A stretch of DNA of 61,175 nt from a virus (Duplodnaviria > Caudoviricetes). Every line of letters begins with the position of its first letter. Positions within the stretch are counted from its first letter, which is position 1. The stretch lies in the IMG/VR virus record IMGVR_UViG_3300037486_000366, positions 1 through 61,175 of that record; one strand, 5' to 3'. The notes beneath the pieces are model-generated. The model was not told the origin of the DNA. It saw only the letters and a list, made by a program, of their open reading frames with translations, and did no database searches. The translations under genes were made by a program, and so were the position numbers. Positions 33,461-53,265 of this stretch are shown piece after piece.

Positions 33461-33700
33461 TTATATATAAGACAACGTTAAGTAATCAGACCAACGCTGA
33501 TTAAACCTATCATCACCATCAGGATATTTTATAATTAAGCTTGATGTTTCATCGAGACGTTTAATTTGCCAAACATATTCAGAATCAAGTGCTCCTGGTT
33601 TAGCTTTACCAATATATGTAATTGGGGCAACTTCAACCATTCTTAATGTATATTCTTGACTTATTATCCTAACTACTTCATGTCCAGCAAAAATTTCCAT
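33461..33700 (-). CDS. Small conserved phage protein
   Basis: TYIGKA.PG....VWQIKR...Y.DG...F...W. Confidence 0.65.
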   Translation of the reverse strand: MEIFAGHEVVRIISQEYTLRMVEVAPITYIGKAKPGALDSEYVWQIKRLDETSSLIIKYPDGDDRFNQRWSDYLTLSYI

Positions 33701-36700
33701 TATTCAAGTAACCTTACACGTTCTGCTTTATTAGGAACATATAGTGCTTTAGCTTGACGTTTAAGTGATTCTTTAGTAATCACTGGAACTTGTCCACCCA
33801 GATTATATCTTACCACAAGATTATTATATTGTACAACTTTATCCATCGTCTTCTGTAACATTTTAGAATCATTTGACATTAATGAATTACGATACTGCTC
33901 ATAAATGTCATCACGCATTTGAGTAAAGTTTTCCCGTTCCATGAGGGCTTCTGATCGTCTCTCTACCATAGTAGCTTGCTGAGCAGATCTAAATCCTAGA
34001 ACCCGTGCCCCAGTCTCAAATGCACTTGCTTTATAAGGCATTCCTTGATTATTAAATACTGGTGTACCTTTGGTTGTAGTTACACCAGAAAGTTCTCTAT
34101 ATGCCTTAAATAAATTACCAATACCAGTTGGTAAAGTCTTTTCCGCAGCTCTACCATATTCTCCTAACTTAGTATAATGTAAAGCATCGCCCACATCTTT
34201 CACTAGTCCACCACCTACACCAAGTAACTCATACATATTTCGTGGTAGTCCAGCATTAATGTTTAATGATCCAGACACATCTAATCCAAGGGCTCCAATG
34301 AGTCCGTGTCTCAAGATAGTTTCTGATGATTTCCCCATGGATTTACGTGTCTTGTCCCAGAACCATTTTTCAGCATCAACCTTTATTCCTAGCAATCTTA
34401 ACAGGGCATTAAAGATACCTACCCAAATATCTTTAAGTGGGGCTACAGCCATACCTGCTAAGAAAATAGGAGACATTAAACCATATAAGAAGCCTTTAAC
34501 ATTCTTCTTTTTGAAACCAACATCATAAAGCATCTGTAAATAATTATGGGGAAACTTCTGGAATGTATACAGCATCTGAAATAATTTAGCTGCTGGATTT
34601 TTCCCTAACGCATACGAAGGTAATGTTGCCTTACCATACACAGCATGTGCTTTATTAGAAGCATCATATGCTTTTGCTACAGCTTCATCATGAGTAAGGT
34701 CAGGATTATTTTTCTTTGCTAATCTATATGCTGCAAGTATTGTTGAACCTCTAATCCATTGTTCTGATTTCTTAAACCCAAACAAGGCTAAACCAAGGGA
34801 CTGGTTCCAAATACGGCCATGGGTTCTTTGTAACGTGCCCATAGCGTCTTGCATATATTGAGGCATATCATAGCCTTTTTCATGTATCTCATCAACAAGT
34901 TTCTGTTCATTAGCATTAGGTAATTCTTGTCCACGCATAACACCGATGTAGTCTTTACTTGAACGAGTAATTTCTGCTCCAATACTTGCTAAACTACCTT
35001 TACCGCCCATAACATATTGATGAATAGCAGTAGGAACAGTGGTTCCAAGGGCAAGCACATTGACAAATAATGTTCGGGGGTTAAACCCGAGATATTTAAA
35101 AGAAGCTACAGATTTAGCATAACCAATTAATCTATCAGTATTATCTGCATTACGTAATTGTTCTTCAACATATTTAGTAGCTACTTCATAAGCACGTCTT
35201 TCTTTTTGTTCGTCAATTCCACCGACTTTCTTTTTACTACCCTCTTCGTCAGTAACATACTTACCAGTAATTGTGCTGAACATATTTTTAGCTGCTTCAG
35301 CTTTAGCTAGTCCAGCAGAAATATTTCCCACATACCTAACAAACCGTTCGCCTGGATCTACGATATAACCTCGGACTATTTTATCCTTACGTCGACGAAT
35401 CATCGACCCTCTAAATCCTCGAGCTTTAATTATATCTGCAATATTATCAAGCAGTTCATTTTCAAACTTCATCCTTAGTTCAGGAGCTTCAAGTTTAGTT
35501 CCTTTCATTGCTAGATTAATTGCTTGATGTATACTAACAAGGCGTAAGTTACCATAAACATCTTCATGAAGTCGTTCACGTTCTTTTATCGGTTCAATAG
35601 TAAAACCTTGACGGGTAAGTGATGCAGCTAAACGTTCTGCAGCTAACCTATTCGATTTATGATAACGAACTTCTTCTTCTTCACCACGTTTACCTACTAC
35701 TTCCCATTCACCTACTTCACGTAAACGAGGAGCATAGGAACCTTTTAATTGTCCCATTGTGTGAAGAACTTCTTTAAGATTAACAGTAGTTATTTTTCCT
35801 TCTTCATCGTATGTTTGAAACTGAGGATATTGTGGTTTTTTATTTTTTGCTTTAGCTTCATCTTCTACCTCAGTTACTGTTTTAACTAAGGGCTCCATAA
35901 GTAAATCTAAAGCCTTGTCATATGCTACTCTATGTGCCTTATATAACTCAAGTACATCTTGTGGAATATTTTGATTCTCAAGATATTGCAAATATGACAT
36001 ATCAGGATTATCTACTTTCTCTCTCCATTCACCTGTATCACCTTCATCAACTATACGAGAAAATAGCTTATAATCATCTGATGTTTCCCCTCTAACTATT
36101 TGCCACCGTGTAAGACCTTTATTTCTAAGAGCAGTTGTTCGCTGAGAAACAGTCTCATCAGAATTTTCAATTTCATCAAGGGTATGAAATAATTCATAGT
36201 AACGATCATGCCGTTTAATGGCAAGGTCAACAAGTTTACGTAGTACTGGATGACTGTACCATTCAGGAGAACGTAAAAGTCTTTCCATAAATGTCAAGGC
36301 TGGAAGATTTCGTGGACGCTGAGCTGAAATTGTTTTTAATAAAGCTTTCGCCTCTTCTCCCCAGAAGTTTTTAAGAACTGCTGGATCAAGCTCATTGAGA
36401 TTTGGGTCTAGCGTACCTTGCTTAGAAACCTTAGCATACTTAATTGGTTGTTTTGCTTTCTCTACTTGAACATTTTGCTTACGATACATTTCCTGAAATT
36501 CTGTGTTTGAGAAAGATCTCGAAGACCCGTCTGTAAACTCAATAACGAAAGTGTTAGTTGCCTCATTCTTGAAAACTTTATCTACTTTACGTAAACCTAT
36601 GATCTTATCAACACGTAACCTATTAGGTTGGATGAAGCCTTTCTTTTCGTTATATTCTCCAGCTCTAGGATTAGGTATCATTACTTTACCATAATCTTTT

Positions 36701-39700
36701 ACTATATAACCTTTCATCTTTTTAGAAGTAGATTCTAGTTCACGCAAACCTTCTTTAGAAACTCTAGAAAATTTCCCAGGTTTATCATATCTAGCCGCAG
36801 TAAAACGTTTACTAAAGTTACCTGTATAAAATGAAGGGGGTACTTTTTCTCCTTCATTAAGTCTAACTACGTCATCAATATAATTAGCTAAGTTTACCTG
36901 ATCTTCTGAAGATATTGTTGCTTTATCTTTTCCAAGAACTGGGACATTTTCAAGTTTAAATGATGGAACCAGCTCTAATAGTTCTGCTTTATCTGCCTCA
37001 TTACTAAACACATCATCAAAGAATTTTTGTTCAGTTGGCGTAAGATATGTTCTAATTTCCTTTTTAGTTGGCTCTAATTCTTCTAACATAGACTTTATTT
37101 CATTCTTATACAAATTAATTGTTTCTATGTCAGGAATATCTTTACTCTTCTCAACCACAATCTTTTTTTCAAGAAGGTCAATTACACTATTGGTTCTTAA
37201 TAAATGATTTTCTTCTGCAGATCTTTTTCCTGGGATAATGTTTGCTACTCTATCTTTAAAATTATCATAAAGAACCTTATCTTCTTTAGAGATAAAATCT
37301 ATTACATTAGTTTTTTCAGTATAAAGATTTTGTAAATCTTTAAAAGATAAAATTTCTTCCTGCCCATCAATAATAAATTTAAGGTCAGTTACTTTTGTAG
37401 CAGGGTCTATCTTAACTTCATTATCTTGAACCCCTTCACTTTCAATGGCTTTAGTGGGAAAAATGATAGCCACAGAAATTTTATCATTAGCCCCATAAGC
37501 AACTATCGGGGAAATATTACTGATTAATTGTGCAGATATTCCAGGGTAGCCTTCAAAATCTTCCCCAACAAATAACTCATTATTCTCTACAATTGAACGA
37601 AGTTCATCGATCGTAGTTATCCTTGTAGCTGTATTAGGTTTAATTGTTCCTACATAAAGTTTATTTTTTAAATTGTCTTTTAAAGCAATCTTCGTACCAA
37701 CTGATTTTTCTATTGAAATAGGAGTTGCTTTATTAAAAGCTTCCTTAATTTCTTCCATTGTAACTATTACTTTAGGATATGTAACGATTGCCTTACGCCC
37801 TACTAAATTATCGAGAGCTTCAAATTCATGACTAGGTTTTTCTGCAAGAAAACGTTGGCTTCGAGCTAACAAGGCTTTGATGTCACCATCCGTATAAGTT
37901 TTTACTATTCCCCAATCACGAAACTTATTGCGAACAAAGGCTATAATCTTTTCCCATAATGTTTCAGATAATTGATTTTTAGGGTCTTGTGCTTGAAATG
38001 CTAAAAATTCTTCAGCAGCTAATAATTGACCACGATTACCACTAGTGCCTGATGAATCACCTTCAATAGACTCATCTATTTCGTATTCTTTCACAACTGT
38101 CTTCATTAAAGGTGTATCTTTATAACTACTATATATTTGGCGCAAAATAGGTTTAAATTCTTCTACACCTAGCATTTCCCACATGCCATGATGAACTAAT
38201 GCTTCATGTAAAAGAGTGCCAAGTGCTTCATCTAAATCTGCAATCTGATCTGCAAAAAGATGAATAGCAATATACCCATCATTATTTGGCCAATATACTC
38301 CAGGAATAAATTGCGTCTCAAGGTCAGCGTTTAAAAGAATATCAACAGGGACGTCTGGATGATAAATAGAATCATAGATCGTGACTATAGGTAAACCTGG
38401 ATGTTCTTCAACAAACTTGTCAATATGGGTCGCAATATCTTTTGCTTTTAAGTTCCCTGCTTTTTCATGTGTTCTTGGTTGTTTGACCTTAGCAAATTTT
38501 TTAGGAATAGCAGTTAATTTATCTTTTTGAAGAATTTCAATATTATTTTCATCAAAATCTATTCCTGTACCATGTTTACCAACTTTAGCTGCCTTAACTC
38601 CAACAAGAGTAGTTGCTACCTTATTAAAGTAATCTATTAAACCATCAATTTGTCGATCAAACTGACTCTTTTCTTCTGAAGTTGCAAAATGAGTGTTTAA
38701 TAAGCCATCATCAAATGATGCTGATAATTGGCCTAGGTAATCAGACAAATGAACCAGGTTGACTTTACTTTCGTCACCAAGATGCCATCGATTATTAATC
38801 ATAGTAGACAATGCGTTTAATAAAGAGGGTAAATCTCCCGTTGTCTTGGGGACTAACGTATTTGTCTTTTTATTAAGGGTTAATACTCGAGTTGAAAGGT
38901 CTTTGTTTTCTTGAGCCGTTTGAAACAAGGGATTTAAGGCTATAAGCTTATGCTTCTTTGCAACAGGTTTCTCTTTTGCAATCTCAGCACGAAGAGCCAT
39001 TTCTTCACGTTTCTCTTCTTCAATTCTATCATCAACCATTTCCTGAATTTCTTTTTCACTTAATTCAGAAAAGTCAGTAGAGAACATATCATATAAATCA
39101 GCTCGACGTTCTTTTTCTTCTTGTTCAGTCATTAAAGGAACTTCAAGCGGGGCAATTTCTTCTTCAGGTTCTTCGACTTTTTCTTCTGTTATTTTTGCCA
39201 TTGCACGTTGATCTGCTGCTTCCTCACGTTCCTCTTCAGTCATCGTGCCTTTTTCTTTCCAAGTACCTTCAGTAGTCTGTTTCCATTGTTTAACAAGGGT
39301 TTTATGCTCAGCAACTTCTTCAGTTGGAACAGCTTCACCTTGCTGTAGTCTTGCTAGAACGTTACGATAACGGGCTTTCTTTTTTAGTGTCTTCTTTACT
39401 TCTGGTAAAGTTTTAATAGAAGGTTCACCTACATAAACATAAGATAAAGTAACCCCACCTTTAATATCTTTTTCAATTTGAGATATATTAGAAAAATCAG
39501 GTTTATTTTTTTCACCAACAAACTCAAATGTATGTTGTGAATATGTTTTATTTTTTAAGACACTTGAAATAGCTTCAGGTAAAGTGTTATAGGTTTCTTG
39601 CCTAATTAACTCTTGATTAGGTTCTATACTTTCTTGTTTATGTTCAACTATATACTTTCCATCCTCCTCTGAAATATCTGCATAAGCTTTATCAAAGGTA

Positions 39701-42354
39701 GTAGAACGTTCAGAAAAATCACTTGCATTGACAAGTTGAGTTTTAAGGTTTTTAATCTCAGTCATTACTTCTGGTAAAGTTTTGCCAGTCTCTGTGGTAC
39801 TAGTACCTGTATCGACTTTACCTTGCTCGATAACCCCTGTAACCACTGCTCCAGTGACTGGCTTGGGAGGACGTCCAGGTTTTCGCTTAGGTCCTGGTTC
39901 AACTGCAGGTCTTTCTTTCTTAGGTCTTCCAACCTTTTTCTTAATCGCTTCTTCAAGGATTGCATCTCCTTTCGCTTCAACCTTTGTGCCATTTTCAAGT
40001 TCAACTTTTACAGTAACATCTTTTAAATCTTCTTTTGCTATTCTATCAAGAATACGTTTAGAAGAAACTATATCTGAAGCAATAATTATTGTGGACGTTT
40101 TTTCTTGAGCTTGCTTAGCTTTTCTTTTAAGCTCTCCTTTTTTGGTTGCTCGTTTTTCTTCTTTAGAAAGGGGTGTTTCGCGTTGTTCTTGAACATTTCC
40201 ACTTGCTGTAATCTTTCCTTCGCCTGTTCCTGTGACAGGTCCGGTTTTGACAGGTTTTTCCCCTTGCTGGACTTTACTTGATAGCCTTGCGATGTTTGTA
40301 CGATCACTTGTAATCTCCTTTCGTTTCGCAATCCACTGTTCCTTGCCTTCTTCTGTATGACCTATTTTTGTAGGTTCATACATATTAAAAATACCAGGCA
40401 TCTTCTGCTCAAGTTTACGTAAAGTAAGTAAAACACTCCCTTTTGAAGTAAAAGCATTTCCCTTAGCTGTCCTAATTTCCGCAGGCACTTCACCAGTAGC
40501 AGTTGGGGTAATTTTCTTTAGCCGTTGTGTTTCTAATCCTCGCTGAATAAGATCAGAAAAAACTTTAGGAACAGCAATCCAGGCTTTAGTATTTAATCTG
40601 AAAGGTACTAGTTCTTTTTCTTTATTAGCTTCTTTTATTGCTTTCTTTGTAACTGCTTCTGAAACAAAGGGTATTTCTTCTCCAGCTTTGTTTTGACTTG
40701 TTAATGATACTTTACGAATTAATTCTGGTAAAGACATTAACGTTCCAATATTCTTTTCATGAGTAAAAGAGTCGGGAGTATGCGCTTCAGAAATAGGCCG
40801 CATGACTGGGTTGCCCTGCTCATCTACGATATGAGAAGATTGAACCATCATAGGAGAAGGAACAATAGGTCCCCGCGCCCCCATAATGGTCTGAGCTAAT
40901 TGAGTCGCACGATTTTCATCAAAACCACGTTTAATGAAATCATCTTTGAAAAAATTAAACAGTTCATACCCAATAATTCGTCTACCAGTTTTTTCATTTT
41001 CTGGGTGAAGTTCTTCTTGCTGAGTAACTTCTTTTGGTGTTTCAATTCCACGTTCCTCAAACTTTTTGACATCTTCAGAAAGTTGTTGTTCAAGGAAACG
41101 TTCCTTAGTCATCTCTTGAAATGTTCTTAATGACTCAAGGTTCTTGTTTAACTCCATTGGTTCTTGATTAACTATCTTATATGCCGCATACTCTTGCCAT
41201 TTAGAAGCAAGATCAGTATCATTAGTTCCATCTAGTTTCTTAAGTTCATTAAAGACTATTTCTGCAGCACGATGTCTATCAGATACATCAGCCTCAGCAT
41301 CTTCTAAAACCTTTGTTACTTGCCCCCGCATCTTTGCCCCACGACCATGACCTACTCCAGCAAATAATAGTGAGGCAAAAAATGTAGGACCTATTGCTTG
41401 TAAAGCCTGTTCTTCAGGAGAAGTCTCTTGAGGTAAACCTGCTTCTTCACGAAACCTTCCTTCAAGATAGCTCTGAGCCATTTCAGTTGGAATTTCAACA
41501 GCTGATAATTTTCCGACTGTAGCCGCATAATCTTTTACACCAGCCGTAGTTCCACGTTCAAGTAACTGTTTAACTGTTTTTGTTGCTGCACGACCGACAC
41601 CTAACCTATCAAGAAACGACCCAATAACAAGGTCACCTGTAAATTCAAGGCCAGCTTCCTGAATAGCAGAAGCAGCTGCCCATGGTTTCCATTCATTATC
41701 TGTTATTGCAAATTGAGGATTTTTCTGATTAAACTTATAGACGTCTTCTGCGAATTGATCATATTCTTGAAGACCAAATGCAATACCACCACCAAGTGCT
41801 CCGGTAGCAATACCTCCTACTCGTCTACCTAATTCAGCTGCTTGTGGAGTTTTACCTATTGCCATACCTAGTGCAGCACCTAACGCTTGACCTGGTTCTG
41901 AGGCAATCAGAATAGGCATAATAGACTGCACAAAACTACGAGAACCCTCAAATACAGAGGTACGAAAAACATTTCCTGCTGACCATGGATCACCTGTTAA
42001 TGTTGGTTGTTTAAAAACACTTGGGAGAGCATTTTCTATCTCTGGTTTTTTCTCAATAAACCAAGTAGCAACAACATCTTTCAGTCCCTGATCTTCATCT
42101 TTAACATTACCGAGACGAATATCGCGTGCTAACATTTCAATTGAACTCAATAAACCAGCAGCAAGACCAGCTGGTAAATCACCGATGACCCCCATCCAAC
42201 TGCTTCGTACAGGAGTAGGTGGTTCTGGTGGATTTATGCTAGCAAGATCTTGTTGTACTTCAGTTAAGCCTTGGTAAATATTTGTAGGTTCAGCACCAGG
42301 AGTACCTACAGAACCAGCCATGTCACGAGCAAATTGTTCAAGGTCAAACGCCAT
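33700..42354 (-). CDS. Giant internal virion / polyvalent protein (2884 aa)
   Basis: Last of the ejected-protein genes; Gly/Ala-rich TM-like N-terminus, GRP AT-hook-like motifs, LLHEALVHHG...AEEFLA metallopeptidase-like motif, helical C-terminus. Confidence 0.8.
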   Translation of the reverse strand: MAFDLEQFARDMAGSVGTPGAEPTNIYQGLTEVQQDLASINPPEPPTPVRSSWMGVIGDLPAGLAAGLLSSIEMLARDIRLGNVKDEDQGLKDVVATWFIEKKPEIENALPSVFKQPTLTGDPWSAGNVFRTSVFEGSRSFVQSIMPILIASEPGQALGAALGMAIGKTPQAAELGRRVGGIATGALGGGIAFGLQEYDQFAEDVYKFNQKNPQFAITDNEWKPWAAASAIQEAGLEFTGDLVIGSFLDRLGVGRAATKTVKQLLERGTTAGVKDYAATVGKLSAVEIPTEMAQSYLEGRFREEAGLPQETSPEEQALQAIGPTFFASLLFAGVGHGRGAKMRGQVTKVLEDAEADVSDRHRAAEIVFNELKKLDGTNDTDLASKWQEYAAYKIVNQEPMELNKNLESLRTFQEMTKERFLEQQLSEDVKKFEERGIETPKEVTQQEELHPENEKTGRRIIGYELFNFFKDDFIKRGFDENRATQLAQTIMGARGPIVPSPMMVQSSHIVDEQGNPVMRPISEAHTPDSFTHEKNIGTLMSLPELIRKVSLTSQNKAGEEIPFVSEAVTKKAIKEANKEKELVPFRLNTKAWIAVPKVFSDLIQRGLETQRLKKITPTATGEVPAEIRTAKGNAFTSKGSVLLTLRKLEQKMPGIFNMYEPTKIGHTEEGKEQWIAKRKEITSDRTNIARLSSKVQQGEKPVKTGPVTGTGEGKITASGNVQEQRETPLSKEEKRATKKGELKRKAKQAQEKTSTIIIASDIVSSKRILDRIAKEDLKDVTVKVELENGTKVEAKGDAILEEAIKKKVGRPKKERPAVEPGPKRKPGRPPKPVTGAVVTGVIEQGKVDTGTSTTETGKTLPEVMTEIKNLKTQLVNASDFSERSTTFDKAYADISEEDGKYIVEHKQESIEPNQELIRQETYNTLPEAISSVLKNKTYSQHTFEFVGEKNKPDFSNISQIEKDIKGGVTLSYVYVGEPSIKTLPEVKKTLKKKARYRNVLARLQQGEAVPTEEVAEHKTLVKQWKQTTEGTWKEKGTMTEEEREEAADQRAMAKITEEKVEEPEEEIAPLEVPLMTEQEEKERRADLYDMFSTDFSELSEKEIQEMVDDRIEEEKREEMALRAEIAKEKPVAKKHKLIALNPLFQTAQENKDLSTRVLTLNKKTNTLVPKTTGDLPSLLNALSTMINNRWHLGDESKVNLVHLSDYLGQLSASFDDGLLNTHFATSEEKSQFDRQIDGLIDYFNKVATTLVGVKAAKVGKHGTGIDFDENNIEILQKDKLTAIPKKFAKVKQPRTHEKAGNLKAKDIATHIDKFVEEHPGLPIVTIYDSIYHPDVPVDILLNADLETQFIPGVYWPNNDGYIAIHLFADQIADLDEALGTLLHEALVHHGMWEMLGVEEFKPILRQIYSSYKDTPLMKTVVKEYEIDESIEGDSSGTSGNRGQLLAAEEFLAFQAQDPKNQLSETLWEKIIAFVRNKFRDWGIVKTYTDGDIKALLARSQRFLAEKPSHEFEALDNLVGRKAIVTYPKVIVTMEEIKEAFNKATPISIEKSVGTKIALKDNLKNKLYVGTIKPNTATRITTIDELRSIVENNELFVGEDFEGYPGISAQLISNISPIVAYGANDKISVAIIFPTKAIESEGVQDNEVKIDPATKVTDLKFIIDGQEEILSFKDLQNLYTEKTNVIDFISKEDKVLYDNFKDRVANIIPGKRSAEENHLLRTNSVIDLLEKKIVVEKSKDIPDIETINLYKNEIKSMLEELEPTKKEIRTYLTPTEQKFFDDVFSNEADKAELLELVPSFKLENVPVLGKDKATISSEDQVNLANYIDDVVRLNEGEKVPPSFYTGNFSKRFTAARYDKPGKFSRVSKEGLRELESTSKKMKGYIVKDYGKVMIPNPRAGEYNEKKGFIQPNRLRVDKIIGLRKVDKVFKNEATNTFVIEFTDGSSRSFSNTEFQEMYRKQNVQVEKAKQPIKYAKVSKQGTLDPNLNELDPAVLKNFWGEEAKALLKTISAQRPRNLPALTFMERLLRSPEWYSHPVLRKLVDLAIKRHDRYYELFHTLDEIENSDETVSQRTTALRNKGLTRWQIVRGETSDDYKLFSRIVDEGDTGEWREKVDNPDMSYLQYLENQNIPQDVLELYKAHRVAYDKALDLLMEPLVKTVTEVEDEAKAKNKKPQYPQFQTYDEEGKITTVNLKEVLHTMGQLKGSYAPRLREVGEWEVVGKRGEEEEVRYHKSNRLAAERLAASLTRQGFTIEPIKERERLHEDVYGNLRLVSIHQAINLAMKGTKLEAPELRMKFENELLDNIADIIKARGFRGSMIRRRKDKIVRGYIVDPGERFVRYVGNISAGLAKAEAAKNMFSTITGKYVTDEEGSKKKVGGIDEQKERRAYEVATKYVEEQLRNADNTDRLIGYAKSVASFKYLGFNPRTLFVNVLALGTTVPTAIHQYVMGGKGSLASIGAEITRSSKDYIGVMRGQELPNANEQKLVDEIHEKGYDMPQYMQDAMGTLQRTHGRIWNQSLGLALFGFKKSEQWIRGSTILAAYRLAKKNNPDLTHDEAVAKAYDASNKAHAVYGKATLPSYALGKNPAAKLFQMLYTFQKFPHNYLQMLYDVGFKKKNVKGFLYGLMSPIFLAGMAVAPLKDIWVGIFNALLRLLGIKVDAEKWFWDKTRKSMGKSSETILRHGLIGALGLDVSGSLNINAGLPRNMYELLGVGGGLVKDVGDALHYTKLGEYGRAAEKTLPTGIGNLFKAYRELSGVTTTKGTPVFNNQGMPYKASAFETGARVLGFRSAQQATMVERRSEALMERENFTQMRDDIYEQYRNSLMSNDSKMLQKTMDKVVQYNNLVVRYNLGGQVPVITKESLKRQAKALYVPNKAERVRLLE

Positions 42355-46000: not shown

Positions 46001-46204
46001 TTATAATTTTGGCCTCGATACAATTATAGCAATCATTGATCCTACTACTGAAAGTAAAGTTACAATAACCCACCCTAATATTTGATTAAACTTACTCGAT
46101 AAGCATGAGTGCAATAGTTCCTGTTTTTTAAATAAGTCAGCACACATCTTATCTATATTCTCATGTTTTTCGTCACAAAGTTCTTTGATATACTCCTTCG
46201 TCAT
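46001..46204 (-). CDS. Small membrane protein with C-terminal TM helix (lysis-adjacent)
   Basis: ATGA overlap with holin; ILGWVIVTLLSVVGSMIAIIV. Confidence 0.65.
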   Translation of the reverse strand: MTKEYIKELCDEKHENIDKMCADLFKKQELLHSCLSSKFNQILGWVIVTLLSVVGSMIAIIVSRPKL

Positions 46205-46698
46205 TTACCATTCCTCGTTTTTTCCCAGCTTCGTAAACCACCCATTCCAAGTAAAGCTGCCACCAAACCAAGAATCTCCTCTGCGTGAAAAGTATTTGGA
46301 TAAGGAGGCATCACTGCCGCTGCAACATTAGTTGTATTGTAAAGAATCATAAAGCACTGAGTTATCCAAACGAAGGACGCAATTAGTGCTTGTGGAATAT
46401 AATAAGCTCCAAGAGAAATACCACAAACCCAACCTATAAATGGTCGCCAACCAGCAACAAACACATTCGCACTTGCCGCCTCTATCTTGTTTATTTCAAC
46501 CTGTCCCTGATCAATAAGCGCCTGTAATTCAGCCCCTCGTTGTATAAGCCTAGCTTCTTCTTCTGGACTTACTTTACCTCTGATTGCAGAGGCAATATCT
46601 TGAATGAAGCCGCCAATACCCTCAAAAACTTTCTTTACCCCTTCGCCAGCTTCTCTCACAACATTACCATCTATCTTAACATCAGAAATAAGCCCCAT
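46201..46698 (-). CDS. Holin, GTA 3TM holin family
   Basis: Q.EINKIEA...FVAGWRPFIGWVCG...LLGMGGLRSWEK. Confidence 0.88.
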   Translation of the reverse strand: MGLISDVKIDGNVVREAGEGVKKVFEGIGGFIQDIASAIRGKVSPEEEARLIQRGAELQALIDQGQVEINKIEAASANVFVAGWRPFIGWVCGISLGAYYIPQALIASFVWITQCFMILYNTTNVAAAVMPPYPNTFHAEEILGLVAALLGMGGLRSWEKTRNGK

Positions 46699-46710: not shown

Positions 46711-47412
46711 TTACGCAAAAATATCAGTTCCAATAAATGGTTTATCAAAACCTGACAATATACAGGCATGATTTGCAAAGTCTAATGCAACATTTAAATT
46801 TAATACAGGAACTTTATAAGCTTCATTATTAGTACAACATTGTCTATATCGTAAAAAATGAAGAGCAATTTTATCTTCATCTTCAGAAGTAAGTTCATCT
46901 TTATATTGCATTGACCTAAACATTATATGTATCTTACCAAATGACTTCGGGCTATGACAAAATCTTGCCTTCACATCAAGATTAGGGTAATACTGAGAAA
47001 GATAAGTATTAATATACTGTATATCTAATGGGCAAAACCAACAACGCATTTCATATGGCAATTCATTATCAATACAAATTTGTGCTGCTTTTAAACAGGG
47101 CACACTCCCTTTAAGTGCTTTTGCTGGTTCGGTAAACTCTGCCCCTAACTTCCCATCATAGAAATATCCTTCAAGATATTGTTTCCAATTAATATTCCAC
47201 CCAGTTAATAAAGCAAATCCTGGCCAATCATACATATAAGCAGTTTTATTAGCAATCATCCAAGTAAGACAATCAAGATGAGACTGTTTAACGTCACTCA
47301 TAGTTATACTCTGGACTATATTAACTGGATATGCCCACATTGCTCGTCCTAAAAGATATTGTTTAAGCACTGATAATTGTACAGTATCTGTTATTGTATA
47401 TGTCCAATTCAT
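46711..47412 (-). CDS. Cys-containing protein of unknown function (radical SAM cassette)
   Basis: ATGA overlap with the glycosyltransferase; 9 Cys; no recognised family. Confidence 0.7.
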   Translation of the reverse strand: MNWTYTITDTVQLSVLKQYLLGRAMWAYPVNIVQSITMSDVKQSHLDCLTWMIANKTAYMYDWPGFALLTGWNINWKQYLEGYFYDGKLGAEFTEPAKALKGSVPCLKAAQICIDNELPYEMRCWFCPLDIQYINTYLSQYYPNLDVKARFCHSPKSFGKIHIMFRSMQYKDELTSEDEDKIALHFLRYRQCCTNNEAYKVPVLNLNVALDFANHACILSGFDKPFIGTDIFA

Positions 47413-48398
47413 AATAATGCTATAAACTCCTGTTTAAATTGTTCATAGTTAAATCTTTCTTTACCTGCCAATGCTATTATATGGGCTTCTTTTTCAAAAC
47501 TGGAAAGATCAGCATTTTTTATTTCCAAAAGATTTGCTATCATAGTATCAACATCATTTGTTTCATAATGAAGACCATCACACCAATTTACCCAATTTCC
47601 ATCAAACGTTCCAGAGTTCCTATCATTTACAATTAATGGAATTGTCCCAGTAAAAATAGCTTGCATAATAGTTGCATTAAAAGGTTCATACCCATCATGT
47701 GGTAAAATAAAGAATTTATAGTTATTAAGTTCTTTAGGCACCTCTGACTGTTTAATAAAGCTATTTAACTTTAAATTACCTGAGGATTGTGCACTAAACA
47801 ATAGATCATAGTAATCATTTTTAGATATAGGAAAAGACCAAGTCCAAGAAGGTTCTTCAGCATTCCACATTTTCCCAAAACACTCAATAAACAAGTCAGT
47901 TTGTTTTATCTTCTGAATAAACTCAACAGAAAATTTATGAGGAAGAACATGCCCAAAATAACAGAATAAGTTACGTTTGTTCCATGGAATCACGTAAGAA
48001 AAAATATCTGCTGTTGGGTAAAAACGATTCAATATTTTTGAATCATACAGAGTAGTAACAGCAGCAGGTTTCTTATTCAATATAACTATATATTCTGCCT
48101 TATTAAATAGTGGAACATACTCAGGTAAAAATAATTCTTTCCAAACATGTGCAATAACAATTAAACGTGTTGATGGATTATCAGTAATATAATTAAGAAT
48201 ATGTGTTATGACATTCGGGTAAAGCTCATTTAAAATAATTAAATCAGGAGTAAGTAAACTAAATGCATCATAGTAATTAATTCCTTGTTGCTTTATTACT
48301 GATATATCTGGATTTGCTTCTTTTACCCATTCACCAATAATTGAACCATAGTATTCAATGGCTGAACCAACATTAAGATTTACAAATACTATTTTCAT
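47409..48398 (-). CDS. GT-B fold glycosyltransferase (GT4-like)
   Basis: MKIVFVN, PDLIILNE, FCYFGH, FFILP...YEPFNATIMQAI.TG..P (E-x7-E/Q motif). Confidence 0.78.
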   Translation of the reverse strand: MKIVFVNLNVGSAIEYYGSIIGEWVKEANPDISVIKQQGINYYDAFSLLTPDLIILNELYPNVITHILNYITDNPSTRLIVIAHVWKELFLPEYVPLFNKAEYIVILNKKPAAVTTLYDSKILNRFYPTADIFSYVIPWNKRNLFCYFGHVLPHKFSVEFIQKIKQTDLFIECFGKMWNAEEPSWTWSFPISKNDYYDLLFSAQSSGNLKLNSFIKQSEVPKELNNYKFFILPHDGYEPFNATIMQAIFTGTIPLIVNDRNSGTFDGNWVNWCDGLHYETNDVDTMIANLLEIKNADLSSFEKEAHIIALAGKERFNYEQFKQEFIALL

Positions 48399-48874
48399 TC
48401 TTTACTCCTTAAGGAATCGAGATACATCTTTGTAAACTCAATTGTTGGAAGCATATAAATCTTTTCTAATGCTTCTATTCTATGAAACAGTCTTTTTGTC
48501 ATATAAAACAAATCTTCAAGTGAATGTCTCATTCGATAGATTGCCTCAACTCGGTTTATTGCGTCACTAATATATTTATCTTTAACGGAACTTTCATTCC
48601 AGCTTTTAATTAAAAAGCAATATTTTTCAATAAACATGGCAAATTCCTTGGTTATTGGAACCTCAAAAAACACCCCAAAAAATGTATCTAACCACTTTGA
48701 AACCATAGGAATTTGTTCTTGTGCTAACTTATCTTCCCCATCAACTAATTTAATACATGAAGTAGCAACATTATTAATCTGTGCTCTGATCTCATCAAGG
48801 TGAGGACCTTTAAATGGAGATAATTCTACTTCTTTTAAGAGCTCTAAACTAAGTTTTTCAATTTGATCTTTCAT
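48395..48874 (-). CDS. Helical protein of unknown function (radical SAM cassette)
   Basis: ATGA overlaps on both sides. Confidence 0.7.
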   Translation of the reverse strand: MKDQIEKLSLELLKEVELSPFKGPHLDEIRAQINNVATSCIKLVDGEDKLAQEQIPMVSKWLDTFFGVFFEVPITKEFAMFIEKYCFLIKSWNESSVKDKYISDAINRVEAIYRMRHSLEDLFYMTKRLFHRIEALEKIYMLPTIEFTKMYLDSLRSKE

Positions 48875-50043
48875 AAAGTATTCCTTAATGAGTCTATTAT
48901 TTCATGTTTATGGTGAATAAGTTGACACACAGAAGGAATTGGGGTAAACATATCCCCAGTTGATTCATACTGTGCCCCTAAACATTGCCCCATACACTTA
49001 TCTTTTATTCCACACATATTACAATATGGTTGATTCTTAAAATCACAATAATGAGTTGCTACATACAGAGTAAAATTCTTTTCATTTGTCCCAACAATCT
49101 TATTCTCTTCCACTTTCATATCAAATAATTCAAACTCTTTATACATTAACCTATGACAGGGAAAACTTTTTAAATCACCCAAACGAATATGATAATGAGG
49201 TTGAAGAGCACATGCCAAACCTTTATTTGTTTTAGCATAAATATTAGTTAAAATATTAAAACCTTTATGTTGGGCGAATAAATCATTAACATTTCCTTTG
49301 CTTGCTAAATACCCCATAAGATAAGTAATAAATTTTCCATATTGTTTTATTTGTTCTTCTGACCATTCTGCATTACGTACTTCTAATAAGTATAGAAAGA
49401 ACCATGGAAAATCATATAATTTAAGCATATCTTGGAACCAATTAAAGTTATCAATCCATCGTTCTATACCATTAGAATACACCATTGGGTGAAAACCAAC
49501 ATCTCCAGTTTTCTTAACAAATTCAAAGGCTGTATTATACCAGTATTGATCCCTATGACCATAAATACATGGGCGATTTTCATCATCCATGAACGGTCCA
49601 TCAAAAGAAGCGCTATTAAACAATATTGCTCCTTTATCTTTAAACTTTTTCTTATATGAAAATATCTTGTCCTCATTACCAGTAAAAATAAAATTAAAGT
49701 TTGTGGGAACAACACAACGCAACCCTGACCAGGCATAAGAAAGAATTAAATCAAGTAATTCAAACCCTATTTGTTGTGAGTAAAGTTCTCCTGAAAATAT
49801 CTCAAGATTAGGTTTCCAATTATTTTTTTTCAACCACTCAAATACTAATACTGCATTAGAAATAATTTTTTCTTCATCTTGTGTTCCTGAAGGAAATAAC
49901 TTATCTCTATGTCTATGAATATAACAGTAAGTGCACATATTATCACATTTACCATTAACAATAAGTTCAAGGGTAAAAAACGAATTTTCTTTCTCCCAAG
50001 CTTTATAGAATGTACGCGATAATAAATTATCAAGTAAAGTCAT
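48871..50043 (-). CDS. Radical SAM/SPASM-domain enzyme
   Basis: CDNMCTYC, FSGE, SFDGP; SPASM cysteines C..PCH and CNMCGIKDKCMGQC...C. Confidence 0.93.
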   Translation of the reverse strand: MTLLDNLLSRTFYKAWEKENSFFTLELIVNGKCDNMCTYCYIHRHRDKLFPSGTQDEEKIISNAVLVFEWLKKNNWKPNLEIFSGELYSQQIGFELLDLILSYAWSGLRCVVPTNFNFIFTGNEDKIFSYKKKFKDKGAILFNSASFDGPFMDDENRPCIYGHRDQYWYNTAFEFVKKTGDVGFHPMVYSNGIERWIDNFNWFQDMLKLYDFPWFFLYLLEVRNAEWSEEQIKQYGKFITYLMGYLASKGNVNDLFAQHKGFNILTNIYAKTNKGLACALQPHYHIRLGDLKSFPCHRLMYKEFELFDMKVEENKIVGTNEKNFTLYVATHYCDFKNQPYCNMCGIKDKCMGQCLGAQYESTGDMFTPIPSVCQLIHHKHEIIDSLRNTL

Positions 50044-51214
50044 TCATAACCTCAGCAATATATTTATCATATTCAGCATAACAAAAAAGTTGAATAAGGT
50101 TCAAATCAACTAAGTTGATAGATCCCATATTTATCAATTCAGCTTTACATGCTCCAGTAACCATGACCAATAATAAAGACATAAATGATCGACGTTGTGG
50201 ATCATTATAAACATCACTTATTTTATTTGCTAATAACAACTCAATCATTAACATATTAACTAATGCAAGACGAAAAGCATAATAACGATGAAAACCATTA
50301 ATAAGATATAAAAACCGTGAACTATCTTCCACAAATGAATATTCTTTCCTAAACTTTTGTTGTGGAAATAAGAAATATTGACACAGTGTTTTTTCCTTTA
50401 CTGTTGTAGCAATTGCAGATCTTCCAGCTGAACACTGGGCTCCATAATGATATGAAGAAAAATCAGACAAATTTAATATAGTATTTATAAACAAGGGCTC
50501 CATGGGATAAACTACATATGGAACAGTCTTTCTTAACTGCTTCATATGCTCAATAACTATTTTAAATGCTTGTATTTGCTCATCAGTATAGTTTCCAGGA
50601 TAACACGGTCCAGGAGCAAGACAAACATAATTATCTCTATATCCTGCTTTAATTAAAATATCAGTAACATTTTTCATATAACTATAGTATTCATATATCA
50701 TCTGAACGTTTTTAGCAAGATAAGTATAATGTTCTGGCCCCCATGTAACTTTATATCTCATAGTTAAATTTTTATACGTATGTTCTGTTACAAAATCAAG
50801 CAGCCCTTGTAATCCAGCATGTATTTGCTCATGTTTCTTTCTTCCTATTTTTGTGAGTTCTGGAGGGCCATCTATTGAAAACTGAACATCTAATTTAAAA
50901 TTATAAAGCTCTACTTTTTTAATAAATCTTTTTACTGGGGCAATATCTATAAGGTTTGTTGAGAACATAATCTTTTTTAAGTTTTTAAAACGATTAACAA
51001 TATAATCAAGATCATCAATTAAATAATCAAGATTAATAGTAGGTTCTCCTCCCCATAAACTTAGGTCTTCAATCTCTAATGGGACATTTTCCCATATTTT
51101 TCTACTTTTAATGCTATGTATAACTTCATCATTATTCATAGTTTTATCTAATAAACAATATGAACAATCGAGTTGACATTTAGATGATAATAATATTTGT
51201 GACCCTATAAACAT
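50030..51214 (-). CDS. Radical SAM enzyme with partial (twitch-like) auxiliary domain
   Basis: CQLDCSYC, WGGEPT, STN, FSIDGP; QCSAG...LC and GAC...FC. Confidence 0.92.
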   Translation of the reverse strand: MFIGSQILLSSKCQLDCSYCLLDKTMNNDEVIHSIKSRKIWENVPLEIEDLSLWGGEPTINLDYLIDDLDYIVNRFKNLKKIMFSTNLIDIAPVKRFIKKVELYNFKLDVQFSIDGPPELTKIGRKKHEQIHAGLQGLLDFVTEHTYKNLTMRYKVTWGPEHYTYLAKNVQMIYEYYSYMKNVTDILIKAGYRDNYVCLAPGPCYPGNYTDEQIQAFKIVIEHMKQLRKTVPYVVYPMEPLFINTILNLSDFSSYHYGAQCSAGRSAIATTVKEKTLCQYFLFPQQKFRKEYSFVEDSSRFLYLINGFHRYYAFRLALVNMLMIELLLANKISDVYNDPQRRSFMSLLLVMVTGACKAELINMGSINLVDLNLIQLFCYAEYDKYIAEVMNDFT

Positions 51215-51216
51215 AA

Positions 51217-51663
51217 TTAAGAAATACCTGCATTATTATAAGTACCATTATAACCGGTATTATGTGTACTATAATGTGTTGTATAATGTGTAGCCCTATA
51301 AGTAGTAAGATTAGAAGATAAATGCGTAGTATAATGAGTAGCACAATAACTTGCATTATGTGTTGCTAAGTAAGTAACAAGATTAGAGGCTAAATGTGTT
51401 GCTAAATAAGTTGCATAATAAGTATGACAGTAATTATTAGTATGAGCTTCATCAAGGGCAGTTCGTAATTGAAGATAATCCATTGTACCTGTACCAGAAT
51501 CCTGTCTTGTAGGATCATATTGTGCTGGTGTTCTACTCCATGAATAGGCTCCTAAACCTGTTAATGAACGTAAAGTATCTATATTCGTCTGTAGTTCAGT
51601 AACATGAGAGGCTTTAGGTTTTGTTACATATTGTGTAAGTGCTTCAGCCCATGAAAAAGACAT
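51217..51663 (-). CDS. Tetrapeptide-repeat protein B (candidate radical SAM substrate, tail-associated)
   Basis: AGAGGAG RBS before ATG 51663; C-terminal 17 repeats YCHT YYAT YLAT HLAS NLVT YLAT HNAS YCAT HYTT HLSS NLTT YRAT HYTT HYST HNTG YNGT YNNA. Confidence 0.8.
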   Translation of the reverse strand: MSFSWAEALTQYVTKPKASHVTELQTNIDTLRSLTGLGAYSWSRTPAQYDPTRQDSGTGTMDYLQLRTALDEAHTNNYCHTYYATYLATHLASNLVTYLATHNASYCATHYTTHLSSNLTTYRATHYTTHYSTHNTGYNGTYNNAGIS

Positions 51664-51692
51664 TTTGTTTTTCTCCTCTTGAGTAGCGACCG

Positions 51693-52040
51693 CTACCCGC
51701 CAATTGCCCCACCGCAATCACCAGAAAGAAAACCATTCCAATGAGTCCCATAGTGAGCTCCTCTATTAGTAGCATAATGGGGGACTAAATTAGTAACAAG
51801 ATAGGTACCACAATAACTTGCATCATGAGTAGCTAAATAAGTAGTAAGATTAGAAGATAAGTGTGTAGTATAATGAGTGGGGCAATAACTTGCATTATAT
51901 GCAGTTAAATGAGTGGTATGGTGAGTTGCACAATAAGCAAGATTATTATGAAGCCAATCAGAATTATCTCGTATTTCTTGAACATCTACACGTTCATCGT
52001 TTAATCTTTGTGCAATAGTTTGTGCCCATGTAAAAGCCAT
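51693..52040 (-). CDS. Tetrapeptide-repeat protein A (candidate radical SAM substrate, tail-associated)
   Basis: Starts 1 nt after the tail fibre stop; YCAT HHTT HLTA YNAS YCPT HYTT HLSS NLTT YLAT HDAS YCGT YLVT NLVP HYAT NRGA HYGT HWNG... Confidence 0.8.
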   Translation of the reverse strand: MAFTWAQTIAQRLNDERVDVQEIRDNSDWLHNNLAYCATHHTTHLTAYNASYCPTHYTTHLSSNLTTYLATHDASYCGTYLVTNLVPHYATNRGAHYGTHWNGFLSGDCGGAIGG

Positions 52041-52041
52041 C

Positions 52042-53265
52042 TTATTTCACCTTTACCCAATGTCGTTTTCGTACTTCTATACCATTCCAGATAGGGTTCA
52101 ATTCTTCCCTCAAAAAAGTAGCTATAATTCTTTCCGGGTAATTTTTACAAGATACTCTTGTCATTCTCGTAAGTTTACCATTTTTATCACTAGTTAAAGG
52201 TGTACCAGGAACATACACTCTATCAACACAGGCAAGAACATACCCAGCCACAGAAATAGGAATACTGTTCTTCTTAACCCCAACCCCGAAACCATAAGTA
52301 TCAGAAGCAATTCCAATTATTCCTACTTGACAGTATTGAGTTGATAAGGTAACTTCCCTGCCTTTCATTACGTATACTCTACCAAATTCAATTTTAAGTT
52401 TATGCTCTAACTCCAAGAAGTCAGCAATATCATTATAAACTGCATTATATATTTTTCCTGAAGAAAGTCTTCCATGTGTATCTGGAGTTTCTGATGGGGC
52501 TGATGCATCAGAATGCCAAATAATAGCGAGGTTTTGAGCACTTGCATTTTGAAAATAAAACTGTGCTGCTGCACCATCAGCTGCAGTATTTTTAAATGTT
52601 ATAGTAGTGCCACAAACTATGGTTGCACTATTTGCTGTAATTGTGCCCCCAGTACTAACTAAAGTAAGTCCAGAAATTGTACCAGAAGCAGCAGTAATAT
52701 TACCAGAACTTGTTAATGTAGCCCCAGATATTGTACCAGAAGAAGCAGTAATGTTGCCAGTACTAATAAGAGTAGCCCCAGAGATTGTACCAGCCGCTGC
52801 AGTAATATTACCAGTACTAACAAGAGTACCTGCAGAAATTGTACCAGAAGCAGCAGTAATATTGCCAGAGGCTGTTAGAGTAGTAACATCAAGTCTTTGT
52901 GCGCTACCCCACCAAGCTTGTTCTCTTGGAAGATTCGTAACTGTTGCGGTACCTGCACCTCCAAACACTTGATATGGTCCTGCTTCTACAGTACCATTAA
53001 TTGTCAGGGTTTTAAGAGCAGTAACAGTTAAAAGACAACCTTTAGGAAGTTTTAATGTTACATTTGCTGGAATAGTTAAATTATCAGTCACAGTCCATGT
53101 GCCTGGACGAAGAAGCAAAGTAACTGTATCACCACCAATTGCTGCTAATGCAGTATTTAATGTTGCTAAAGTAAAATTATTACTTGTCCCATATCTTACT
53201 AAAGCATCTACTTCATTAAGAACATGAAGACCACCAATTAAAGTTCCAGCAAGTAATTGTGCCAT
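52042..53265 (-). CDS. Tail fibre with C-terminal intramolecular chaperone / autocleavage domain
   Basis: 18-aa Thr/Gly repeats; YNAVYNDIADFLE...IGIASDTYGF..G...P....G.V...ERII...WVKVK resembles Peptidase_G2-type chaperone domains. Confidence 0.8.
   Translation of the reverse strand: MAQLLAGTLIGGLHVLNEVDALVRYGTSNNFTLATLNTALAAIGGDTVTLLLRPGTWTVTDNLTIPANVTLKLPKGCLLTVTALKTLTINGTVEAGPYQVFGGAGTATVTNLPREQAWWGSAQRLDVTTLTASGNITAASGTISAGTLVSTGNITAAAGTISGATLISTGNITASSGTISGATLTSSGNITAASGTISGLTLVSTGGTITANSATIVCGTTITFKNTAADGAAAQFYFQNASAQNLAIIWHSDASAPSETPDTHGRLSSGKIYNAVYNDIADFLELEHKLKIEFGRVYVMKGREVTLSTQYCQVGIIGIASDTYGFGVGVKKNSIPISVAGYVLACVDRVYVPGTPLTSDKNGKLTRMTRVSCKNYPERIIATFLREELNPIWNGIEVRKRHWVKVK
52648..52881 (-). 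repeat. Four-plus 54-bp (18-aa) tandem repeats in the tail fibre shaft
   Basis: TTGTACCAG...GCAGTAAT anchors at 52677, 52731, 52785, 52839; TLxSxGNITAxxGTISxx. Confidence 0.9.

Follow-up and report, generated by a model that had tools for sequence, protein, structure and literature searches.

The window analysed here is the whole IMG/VR record IMGVR_UViG_3300037486_000366 (61,175 bases, completeness rating 100%), which comes from a sediment phage. At positions 46711-52040 it contains seven co-directional minus-strand open reading frames (ORFs), which encode two repeat proteins, two radical S-adenosylmethionine (SAM) enzymes, a helical protein, a glycosyltransferase-like protein and an ORFan. 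Based on the sequences analysed, the two radical SAM enzymes, together with the helical protein and the glycosyltransferase where present, very probably modify the co-encoded repeat proteins post-translationally; a maturation resembling that of peptides which are made on ribosomes and then modified post-translationally (RiPPs) or that of the His-Xaa-Ser (HXS) system is well supported. The fuller statement, that a mobile RiPP- or HXS-like maturation cassette stands in the late structural operon and that the virion is the favoured but unproven destination of its product, we hold to be slightly on the probable side of even, while the presence of the product in the virion, as a tail-associated appendage, taken by itself falls somewhat short of even. 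The seven ORFs, whose coordinates in the ORF listing are those of the preliminary description of this DNA, are the following.

51693..52040, minus strand: repA, 115 aa, one N-terminal domain of ~40 aa followed by 17 tetrads
51217..51663, minus strand: repB, 148 aa from the ATG at 51663, two tandem N-domains followed by ~17 tetrads
50030..51214, minus strand: rSAM1, a radical SAM enzyme of 394 aa
48871..50043, minus strand: rSAM2, a radical SAM/SPASM enzyme of 390 aa
48395..48874, minus strand: h159, a six-helix partner protein of 159 aa
47409..48398, minus strand: a glycosyltransferase-like protein of 329 aa, family 1-like by homology, an accessory member
46711..47412, minus strand: p233, an ORFan of 233 aa with an ATGA overlap with the glycosyltransferase gene

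We used an alignment-based scan to find relatives of the enzyme pair, and this yielded 44 viral loci and a further 27 in species-representative genomes, all of the latter on contigs of metagenome-assembled genomes (MAGs); single-sequence scans of the viral contigs with either enzyme gave no match. One MAG locus duplicates a viral locus, which leaves 70 distinct loci, 61 of them with a scorable SPASM gene. The rSAM1 gene is found within 6 kb of the SPASM gene in 58 of these 61 loci and in all of those with wide flanks (39/39). With a hidden Markov model (HMM) of the N-domain, repeat proteins are identified in 28 further distinct loci, almost always as an adjoining pair of a two-domain and a one-domain paralog (REP proteins). 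The other matches to the model in those loci are just two longer proteins, a LamG fusion (L071) and a 263-aa protein with a different repeat (L010). Counted independently of the HMM, a tract in which S/T/N/G/Y/H/D/C make up 75% or more of the residues is found no further than 3 kb from the enzyme pair in 40 of the 61 loci, compared with 10 of 607 genes elsewhere in the same loci. A helical gene of ~150-200 aa is present 3' of the SPASM gene in 36/61 loci. Among the close-clade loci with wide flanks (n=20), h159 and a repeat protein are found in every one, the latter being a REP pair in 17 and a His-Xaa-Ser protein in three. The preliminary description had placed the enzymes beside repeat proteins and had asked whether their homologs mostly stand without such proteins; they do not, since enzyme pair, repeat pair and helical protein recur across dozens of loci. 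The core of the cassette is repA, repB, rSAM1, the radical SAM/SPASM gene and the gene of the 159-aa helical protein.

A second clade, all viral (16 tree rows, huge-phage contigs included), has kept the enzyme pair and contains long repeat proteins of other kinds, with much Ser, Asn, Gly, Cys and Tyr, as well as YcaO (127 and 107 bits) and glycosyltransferase family 2 (GT2) genes. On the huge-phage contigs (L023:6226-7809, L031:5739-7544 and neighbouring genes, also L024, L025 and L018) the radical SAM pair stands with YcaO, with Ser/Asn/Gly/Cys/Tyr repeat proteins of 230-425 aa, with paired ~290-aa Cys-motif proteins and with a weak M28/M20-like peptidase match; judged by their gene content, the YcaO loci have the appearance of an extensive RiPP-like cluster carried by phages. 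In six viral contigs (L014, L019, L022, L025, L026 and L028) the radical SAM genes are split into many short ORFs under translation table 11, which suggests stop-codon reassignment or poor assembly. Neither this family nor phage fibres modified by radical SAM enzymes turned up in a literature search, mostly at the level of titles and abstracts; by that search the family is undescribed. The maturation of repeat proteins by paired radical SAM enzymes is already known as a principle.

Concerning the repeat proteins, a strict four-residue repeat is confirmed in both, with a period-4 information reached by 0 of 5000 shuffles for either protein. repA contains one N-domain (E 1.6e-15) and 17 consecutive tetrads of the form [Y/H/N]-x-x-[T/S/A/G]. 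repB, which was aligned with 19 two-domain paralogs, has two N-domain matches (E 1.3e-10 and 4.6e-08), and its start is most likely the ATG at 51663, rather than the TTG at 51717 of the ORF listing, because of the conserved MSFSW N-terminus. Neither protein has a match in Pfam, NCBIfam, PHROG or the PDB sequences, and the PDB sequence search with the N-domain profile returned designed coiled coils only (E>1). The AlphaFold2 (AF2) model of repB has confident helices at residues 18-34 and 59-78, with a predicted local distance difference test score (pLDDT) of 62.6 overall. Across the family the pooled tetrad is small-[S/T/G]-[Y/H/D/N/V]-polar; period 4 is the best one in 48 of 54 cores and period 3 in three, a count that takes in the two window proteins and two duplicates. 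The cores are acidic overall (D+E 15.7%, K+R 3.6%), rich in His, Tyr and Asp, and contain 1.3% Cys. A hydrophobic N-terminal stretch is missing from 55 of the 56 REP proteins (19-aa Kyte-Doolittle maximum <1.6), and the single exception is due to an upstream ORF extension. The length of the proteins reaches 300-560 aa, and some are fused to lectin domains. With a conserved N-domain ahead of a variable core, their layout would agree with a division into leader and core.

The nearest relatives of the N-domain are found in a ~37-aa module (FTDDPL...G.T.IKA.HI.ELR.AI), present in three tandem copies at the C-termini of unrelated secreted bacterial proteins (fn3, CAP, reprolysin-like). The carriers are P0279, P0281, P0287, P0290, P0291 and P0294, and the Pfam copy used has no model that covers the module. 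The search for the N-domain among longer homologs returned mainly proteins of this type, without repeats; the sole true fusion is P0282, in which an N-domain, a long middle region without Pfam match, a second N-domain and the repeats follow one another. The sequence S-D-[RK]-R-L-K-x-x-I plus three residues forms the end of L010:284-1075, L010:2895-4526 and P0282, two of which are REP-like. We take this C-terminal motif to resemble the start of the S74 intramolecular-chaperone domain of tail fibres.

The preliminary description had also recognised two radical SAM enzymes, one of them with a SPASM region, and the motifs on which this was based (CQLDCSYC, CDNMCTYC and the C-terminal CNMC-x5-C-x3-C) are present in the translations. 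In rSAM1 the CX3CX2C motif lies at residues 13-20, is conserved in the family and is accompanied by three further family-conserved cysteines (C261, C278 and C355). The protein passes Fer4_12 at 30.2 bits (cut-off 22) and matches Radical_SAM at 23.6 bits and phrog_1802 at E 4.5e-17. One database gene call for rSAM1 begins at residue 26 (369 aa); this start would lose the CX3CX2C motif, and therefore the longer start is taken as the functional one. In rSAM2 the CX3CX2C motif, likewise conserved in its family, lies at residues 33-40 and a CX2CX5CX3C motif is found at the C-terminus, the SPASM cysteines C341, C344, C350 and C354 being invariant. rSAM2 reaches 24.1 bits on the SPASM model TIGR04085 (cut-off 27), 34.7 bits on PapB over its full length and only 13.4 bits on Radical_SAM; many of its homologs carry PF04055. 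The SPASM enzyme has 261 database homologs, ~40% identical and unnamed, and rSAM1 has 378 representatives at E<=1e-3 with only three at E<=1e-30; rSAM1 thus evolves faster than the SPASM enzyme.

According to NCBIfam, the best rows of both enzymes are peptide or protein maturases (PapB ~35 bits, HxsB 22, HxsC 19). Of the 35 aligned members of the SPASM family, matches at E<=1e-3 are found to PapB in 35, Nif11-rSAM in 34, QhpD in 33, SPASM in 32, the SCIFF maturase in 31 and HxsB in 23. rSAM1 and rSAM2 are distant paralogs (hhalign probability 98.9%, E 2.8e-17), closer to one another than either is to HxsB. By these comparisons both enzymes resemble peptide- or protein-modifying radical SAM enzymes, and nothing else better.

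The analogy with the His-Xaa-Ser system drawn in the preliminary description holds up, as three close relatives of the enzyme pair adjoin bona fide HxsB, HxsD and HxsA3/A4-type genes. In these loci (L062, L067 and L072) the gene immediately upstream of the pair encodes a protein whose N-terminal segment is hydrophobic and which contains His-Gly/Ser-Ser triplets. HxsA4 is matched at 101 bits (cut-off 55) in L067 and HxsA3 at 55.6 bits (cut-off 65) in L062; HxsB reaches 476-514 bits (cut-off 370), HxsD 61.5 and 62 bits (cut-off 50) and an HxsD-like protein 66.5 bits (cut-off 41). A quick, midpoint-rooted tree, used for interleaving only, has the three HXS-linked loci nested among the REP loci, and therefore one enzyme lineage serves both tetrad and His-Xaa-Ser proteins. 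Downstream of the cassette in L067, a Colwellbacteria-labelled contig, there are at least six further ORFs of ~285-325 aa with CX3CX2C-like N-termini (L067:11801-19659), which may form an unusually dense radical SAM island.

Experiments have shown that the HXS system acts against phages (Li et al., Nat Commun 2026, PMC13128918). As described in the available parts of that paper, HxsB, HxsC and HxsD mature HxsA by a change of +8 Da on S-H-R-S-S and by N-terminal processing, and mature HxsA is periplasmic and blocks the entry of phage DNA.

Concerning the remaining genes of the cassette, h159 is translationally coupled to rSAM2, and its AF2 model is a confident all-helical six-helix bundle (pLDDT 90.2). 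A complex prediction for the SPASM enzyme, h159 and the N-domain scored 0.06 against a mark of 0.32 and counts neither way; nothing usable came from the ESM Atlas for h159 or p233. The assignment of a GT-B glycosyltransferase depends on a homolog: the window protein itself matches only Exostosin_GT47 at 14.6 bits, whereas L005:13072-14070, which shares 31% identity with the full-length window protein (E 1e-54), passes Glycos_transf_1 (PF00534) at 33.1 bits (cut-off 26.4). Matches to PF00534 (GT1) are found in seven of 119 flanking proteins of REP loci. In L052 a glycosyltransferase is fused to rSAM1 in an 803-aa protein upstream of the SPASM gene, a fusion that is a Rosetta-stone link between the two activities. 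The Cys-containing 233-aa gene is an ORF at the place given in the preliminary description, but its membership of the cassette is unsupported. p233 has no family match in Pfam, NCBIfam or PHROG, 0 matches in the 44 viral loci and, in the 128-408-aa range of 5.8 billion proteins, no relative besides itself; the pLDDT of its Atlas model is 0.34. Because no relative was found anywhere searched, p233 cannot be counted as an established member of the cassette. The scans with Pfam, NCBIfam and PHROG detected no exporter, leader peptidase or immunity family in the seven genes, in line with what had been noted at first. The packing of the genes is also as described, and direct reading of the sequence confirms three ATGA stop/start overlaps; the genes of rSAM1 and the SPASM enzyme overlap by 14 nt.

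In the mechanism we propose, repA and repB would be the substrates, with the helix-containing N-domain (one copy in repA and two in repB) as the probable recognition element and the hypervariable tetrad tracts (small-[S/T]-[H/Y/N/D]-x) as the modified part. rSAM1, the SPASM enzyme and h159 would most likely introduce one intramolecular cross-link, or a related radical modification, per tetrad, by analogy with HxsB and HxsC on S-H-R-S-S and with the SPASM maturases that form cyclophanes, ethers and thioethers. The GT-B enzyme would probably add sugars to many Ser/Thr residues; the glycosylation suggested in the preliminary description is thus plausible, since GT1 or GT2 genes are met repeatedly and a fusion of one with rSAM1 exists. 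No protease or exporter is encoded, and therefore the whole modified proteins would be the products. The fate we favour for them would be association with the tail, as an accessory fibre or decoration, since the cassette shares its transcript with fibre genes. Several observations weigh against a maturation of this kind. The chemistry is drawn by analogy, and all NCBIfam matches of both enzymes are far under the curated cut-offs. The AF2 confidence is low across the repeat region of repB, the h159 model has no PDB fold match at E<=0.001 (Foldseek), and no domain similar to a RiPP recognition element (RRE) was found in the cassette.

Whether the product is part of the virion depends largely on the surroundings of the cassette. 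In the minus-strand late operon, the gene of the major head protein (phrog_1357, E 2.4e-53) is followed by that of a virion structural protein (phrog_437), by genes for proteins of 1014 aa and 407 aa (the latter fibre-like), by the seven-gene cassette, by a holin and by internal-protein-sized genes. The two genes that border the cassette are the following.

52042..53265, minus strand: flanking fibre-like protein of 407 aa, context outside the cassette
46201..46698, minus strand: flanking holin of 165 aa, context outside the cassette

The holin is confirmed by PF11351 (38.3 bits, cut-off 24.8) and phrog_3427 (E 7.5e-18). The tail fibre reported upstream of the cassette stands as fibre-like, and the identity of the 407-aa protein comes by homology only: it is 43% identical (E 1e-34) to part of a 1229-aa protein of L004, which matches tail-fibre PHROGs (E 7.6e-95). 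A scan for promoters and terminators found sites between the cassette and the fibre gene no more frequently than in shuffled sequences, which speaks for a virion fate. Further downstream, the same operon contains a 2884-aa ORF (33700-42354), which with genes of 463, 547 and 148 aa resembles the internal or ejected protein set of a podovirus-like particle; the latter three, downstream of the holin, have no PHROG match.

The evidence on the tail appendage proposed in the preliminary description is divided, and the virion as the place of the product is not established. In its favour, the 119 flanking proteins of REP loci include tape-measure, tail-fibre, tailspike and virion-structural PHROG matches, four matches to Laminin_G_3, a minor tail protein family and, once each, T4 portal, gp19 tube, collagen and M15 lysin. 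Homologs of the 407-aa protein are found within 6 kb of the enzyme pair in 10/61 loci, one of them a collagen-like tail fibre. A lectin domain is also joined to the repeat proteins directly, as Laminin_G_3 (88 bits) is fused to the N-domain and repeats in L071, and the fusion in P0282 counts on this side too. The expectation that the homologs stand beside tail genes is borne out only in part. Against a virion fate count the following: the 407-aa protein has homologs nearby in no more than those 10 loci; homologs of the glycosyltransferase lie near the enzyme pair in only 7/61 loci (BLAST); the N-domain was found on no tail protein in the loci; no virion-attachment domain and no homology to a known virion protein was found for repA and repB; and neither rSAM1, the SPASM enzyme nor a 20-kb stretch of the DNA was matched in the INPHARED phages. 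The enzyme genes are AT-rich, as was first suspected (GC 0.295-0.322 over 47-51 kb, compared with 0.337-0.387 just outside), and in this the cassette is like an acquired accessory module or moron. Two Parcubacteria-labelled MAG contigs (L055 and L057) also contain a complete REP cassette among cellular genes (TsaD, NifS/NifU, CCA-adding or polyA polymerase, RecG, POR, TatC and Ham1); a scan of 36 flanking proteins, from ORFs of 90 aa or more no further away than 10 kb, matched no phage family. The cassette stands there among housekeeping genes, and therefore the system also works in cells. In both contigs (L055:101-6753 and L057:544-6997) it lies two genes upstream of TatC and follows directly 3' of the genes for cysteine desulfurase and NifU; these neighbours could be functionally linked to it, by the supply of Fe-S clusters or by the export of a folded product.

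The most specific form of the virion reading is that phages captured an offshoot of HXS chemistry to build their own particle, with repA and repB as covalently stapled, glycosylated fibre or decoration proteins in which the tetrad tract would be a rigid, protease-proof element for receptor contact or envelope penetration. We put this forward tentatively and consider it rather unlikely as a whole.

A less probable alternative is that the repeat proteins are HXS-like effectors which act in or on the infected cell and not in the virion, by superinfection exclusion at DNA entry, as a moron defence or as counter-defence against HXS-type gatekeeping; the site beside the tail genes would then be a mere common insertion hot spot. 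The nesting of the three HXS-linked loci among the REP loci speaks for it, as do the cellular contigs and the AT-richness of the cassette relative to its flanks. HXS itself is anti-phage and uses two radical SAM enzymes and a small protein to mature a repeat effector, and the window tetrads T-H-x-[ST]-[ST] resemble the S-H-R-S-S reported as modified in the available parts of PMC13128918. The REP proteins, however, are without the features of HxsA, in that nearly all lack a hydrophobic N-terminus and no peptidoglycan-binding or other Pfam domain was found. Their cores are acidic, in contrast to the basic HxS repeats proposed to bind DNA, and therefore fit poorly to an electrostatic capture of DNA. 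The genes also belong to a late operon beside the holin, which is late for exclusion, and neither HxsB, HxsC nor HxsD membership could be established in the window.

It is improbable that the product is a RiPP-like substance released by lysis, whole or as fragments, and active outside the cell as an antimicrobial, a metal binder (His/Tyr/Asp-rich) or an adhesive. The lack of an exporter or immunity gene and the holin directly downstream would suit this, an exporter being unneeded because holin and lysin open the cell; so would the cores rich in His, Tyr and Asp, and the YcaO genes and weak M28/M20-like peptidase match of the distant viral relatives, which recall classical RiPP clusters. On the other hand, a leader peptidase is absent from both the window and the close clade, substrates of the lengths given above, some of them fused to lectins, are unlike diffusible peptides, and the cassette is also found in cells without lysis genes nearby.

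Radical SAM and glycosyltransferase genes of phages are often assigned to DNA hypermodification. An action of the enzymes on DNA or a cofactor, with the repeat proteins as ordinary unmodified low-complexity fibres, is highly improbable even though a Thermus-phage radical SAM module with a different gene set was interpreted by its authors as DNA modification (PMC11437467, available part), since all the closest families in NCBIfam are maturases of peptides or proteins, the association with repeat proteins is kept across different kinds of repeat (tetrads, HxS triplets, Cys/Ser/Asn tracts) and ~30 kb separate the cassette from the nucleotide genes.

The cassette defines a large unnamed sister family of HXS, which comprises two paralogous radical SAM enzymes, a helical partner and a pair of tetrad-repeat substrates with N-domains, and which is spread over many uncultivated phages, including huge phages (with YcaO), and over genomes labelled as candidate-phyla radiation bacteria. 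To our knowledge, the maturation of whole proteins by radical SAM enzymes is known from few systems only. If the products are virion parts, this would add a new principle to the assembly of virus particles, and stable, patterned proteins with cross-links would have a new source; if the stapled-fibre reading is true, repA and repB would be the first virus structural proteins matured by radical SAM (RiPP-type) enzymes. If they are effectors, phages would carry an HXS-like weapon. The swap between tetrad and His-Xaa-Ser substrates in one enzyme lineage offers a handle on HXS chemistry, which is still unknown, and both readings now come with defined substrates, defined enzymes and a clear assay by mass spectrometry.

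Among the known systems, the SPASM peptide maturases (PapB ranthipeptide NF047865, SCIFF TIGR03974, QhpD TIGR03906 and Nif11-type TIGR04064) are similar to the window enzyme in having the CX3CX2C motif and a C-terminal SPASM cysteine motif. They are the best-scoring families for 31-35 of the 35 members and act on a co-encoded ribosomal substrate; they differ in that the window enzyme scores about one tenth of their cut-offs, that RRE, protease and exporter are missing and that the substrates are whole proteins. Neither enzyme can be assigned to the PapB-type ranthipeptide class, as both reach ~35 bits on NF047865 (cut-off 340) and the cores are poor in Cys, compared with the required Cys-X3-Asp/Glu; Cys is so rare in the substrates that Cys thioethers cannot be the main product. 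A classical RiPP pathway is not supported either, with no RRE-like N-terminal extension, leader protease or exporter family found in the cassette. YhhB, XyeB and FxsB, which we take to be synthases of three-residue cyclophanes (triceptides), also use short repeated motifs starting with an aromatic residue or His; YhhB is matched by 22/35 family members at E<=1e-3, with no member near the cut-offs. The difference is that the window repeat unit has four residues and that position 3 is often Asp, Asn or Val in the relatives. A radical SAM target with a strict four-residue period has a precedent in the CXXX-repeat/rSAM maturase system (TIGR04115), to which there are weak matches in 7/35 members, far below the cut-off of 350 bits; the Cys at every fourth residue of that system is absent from the window repeats.

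The comparison with the HXS models TIGR03977 and TIGR03978 proposed in the preliminary description gave scores far below the cut-offs, alongside the weak HxsB matches of the SPASM family. The window SPASM enzyme reaches 22.4 bits on TIGR03978 (HxsB, cut-off 370), in the N-terminal part only, and alignment A1 against bona fide HxsB gives an hhalign probability of 5%. rSAM1 reaches 19.0 bits on TIGR03977 (HxsC, cut-off 267.9). h159 has no match to TIGR03976 (HxsD, cut-off 50 bits) or to any other NCBIfam model at E<=0.1, and alignment A4 against the 61.5-bit HxsD gives a probability of 0.8%. Judged by the features described for HxsA effectors in the available parts of PMC13128918, repA and repB do not belong to these either: a hydrophobic N-terminus and a peptidoglycan-binding domain are missing and the period is 4, not 3, so that only the local pattern [ST]-H-x-[ST]-[ST] is common to both. 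The window system differs from HXS also in its pair of paralogous substrates with a dedicated N-domain and no signal peptide, in their mostly acidic cores, in a partner protein unrelated to HxsD, in the attached glycosyltransferase and in being carried in a phage late operon. The operon logic is the same as far as that source describes it: two adjacent radical SAM genes, a small partner protein and a repeat protein which is itself the matured product, not a cleaved peptide. The motifs are alike as well, S-H-x-S-S in HXS and T-H-x-[ST]-[ST] in the window (for example T-H-Y-T-T and T-H-L-S-S).

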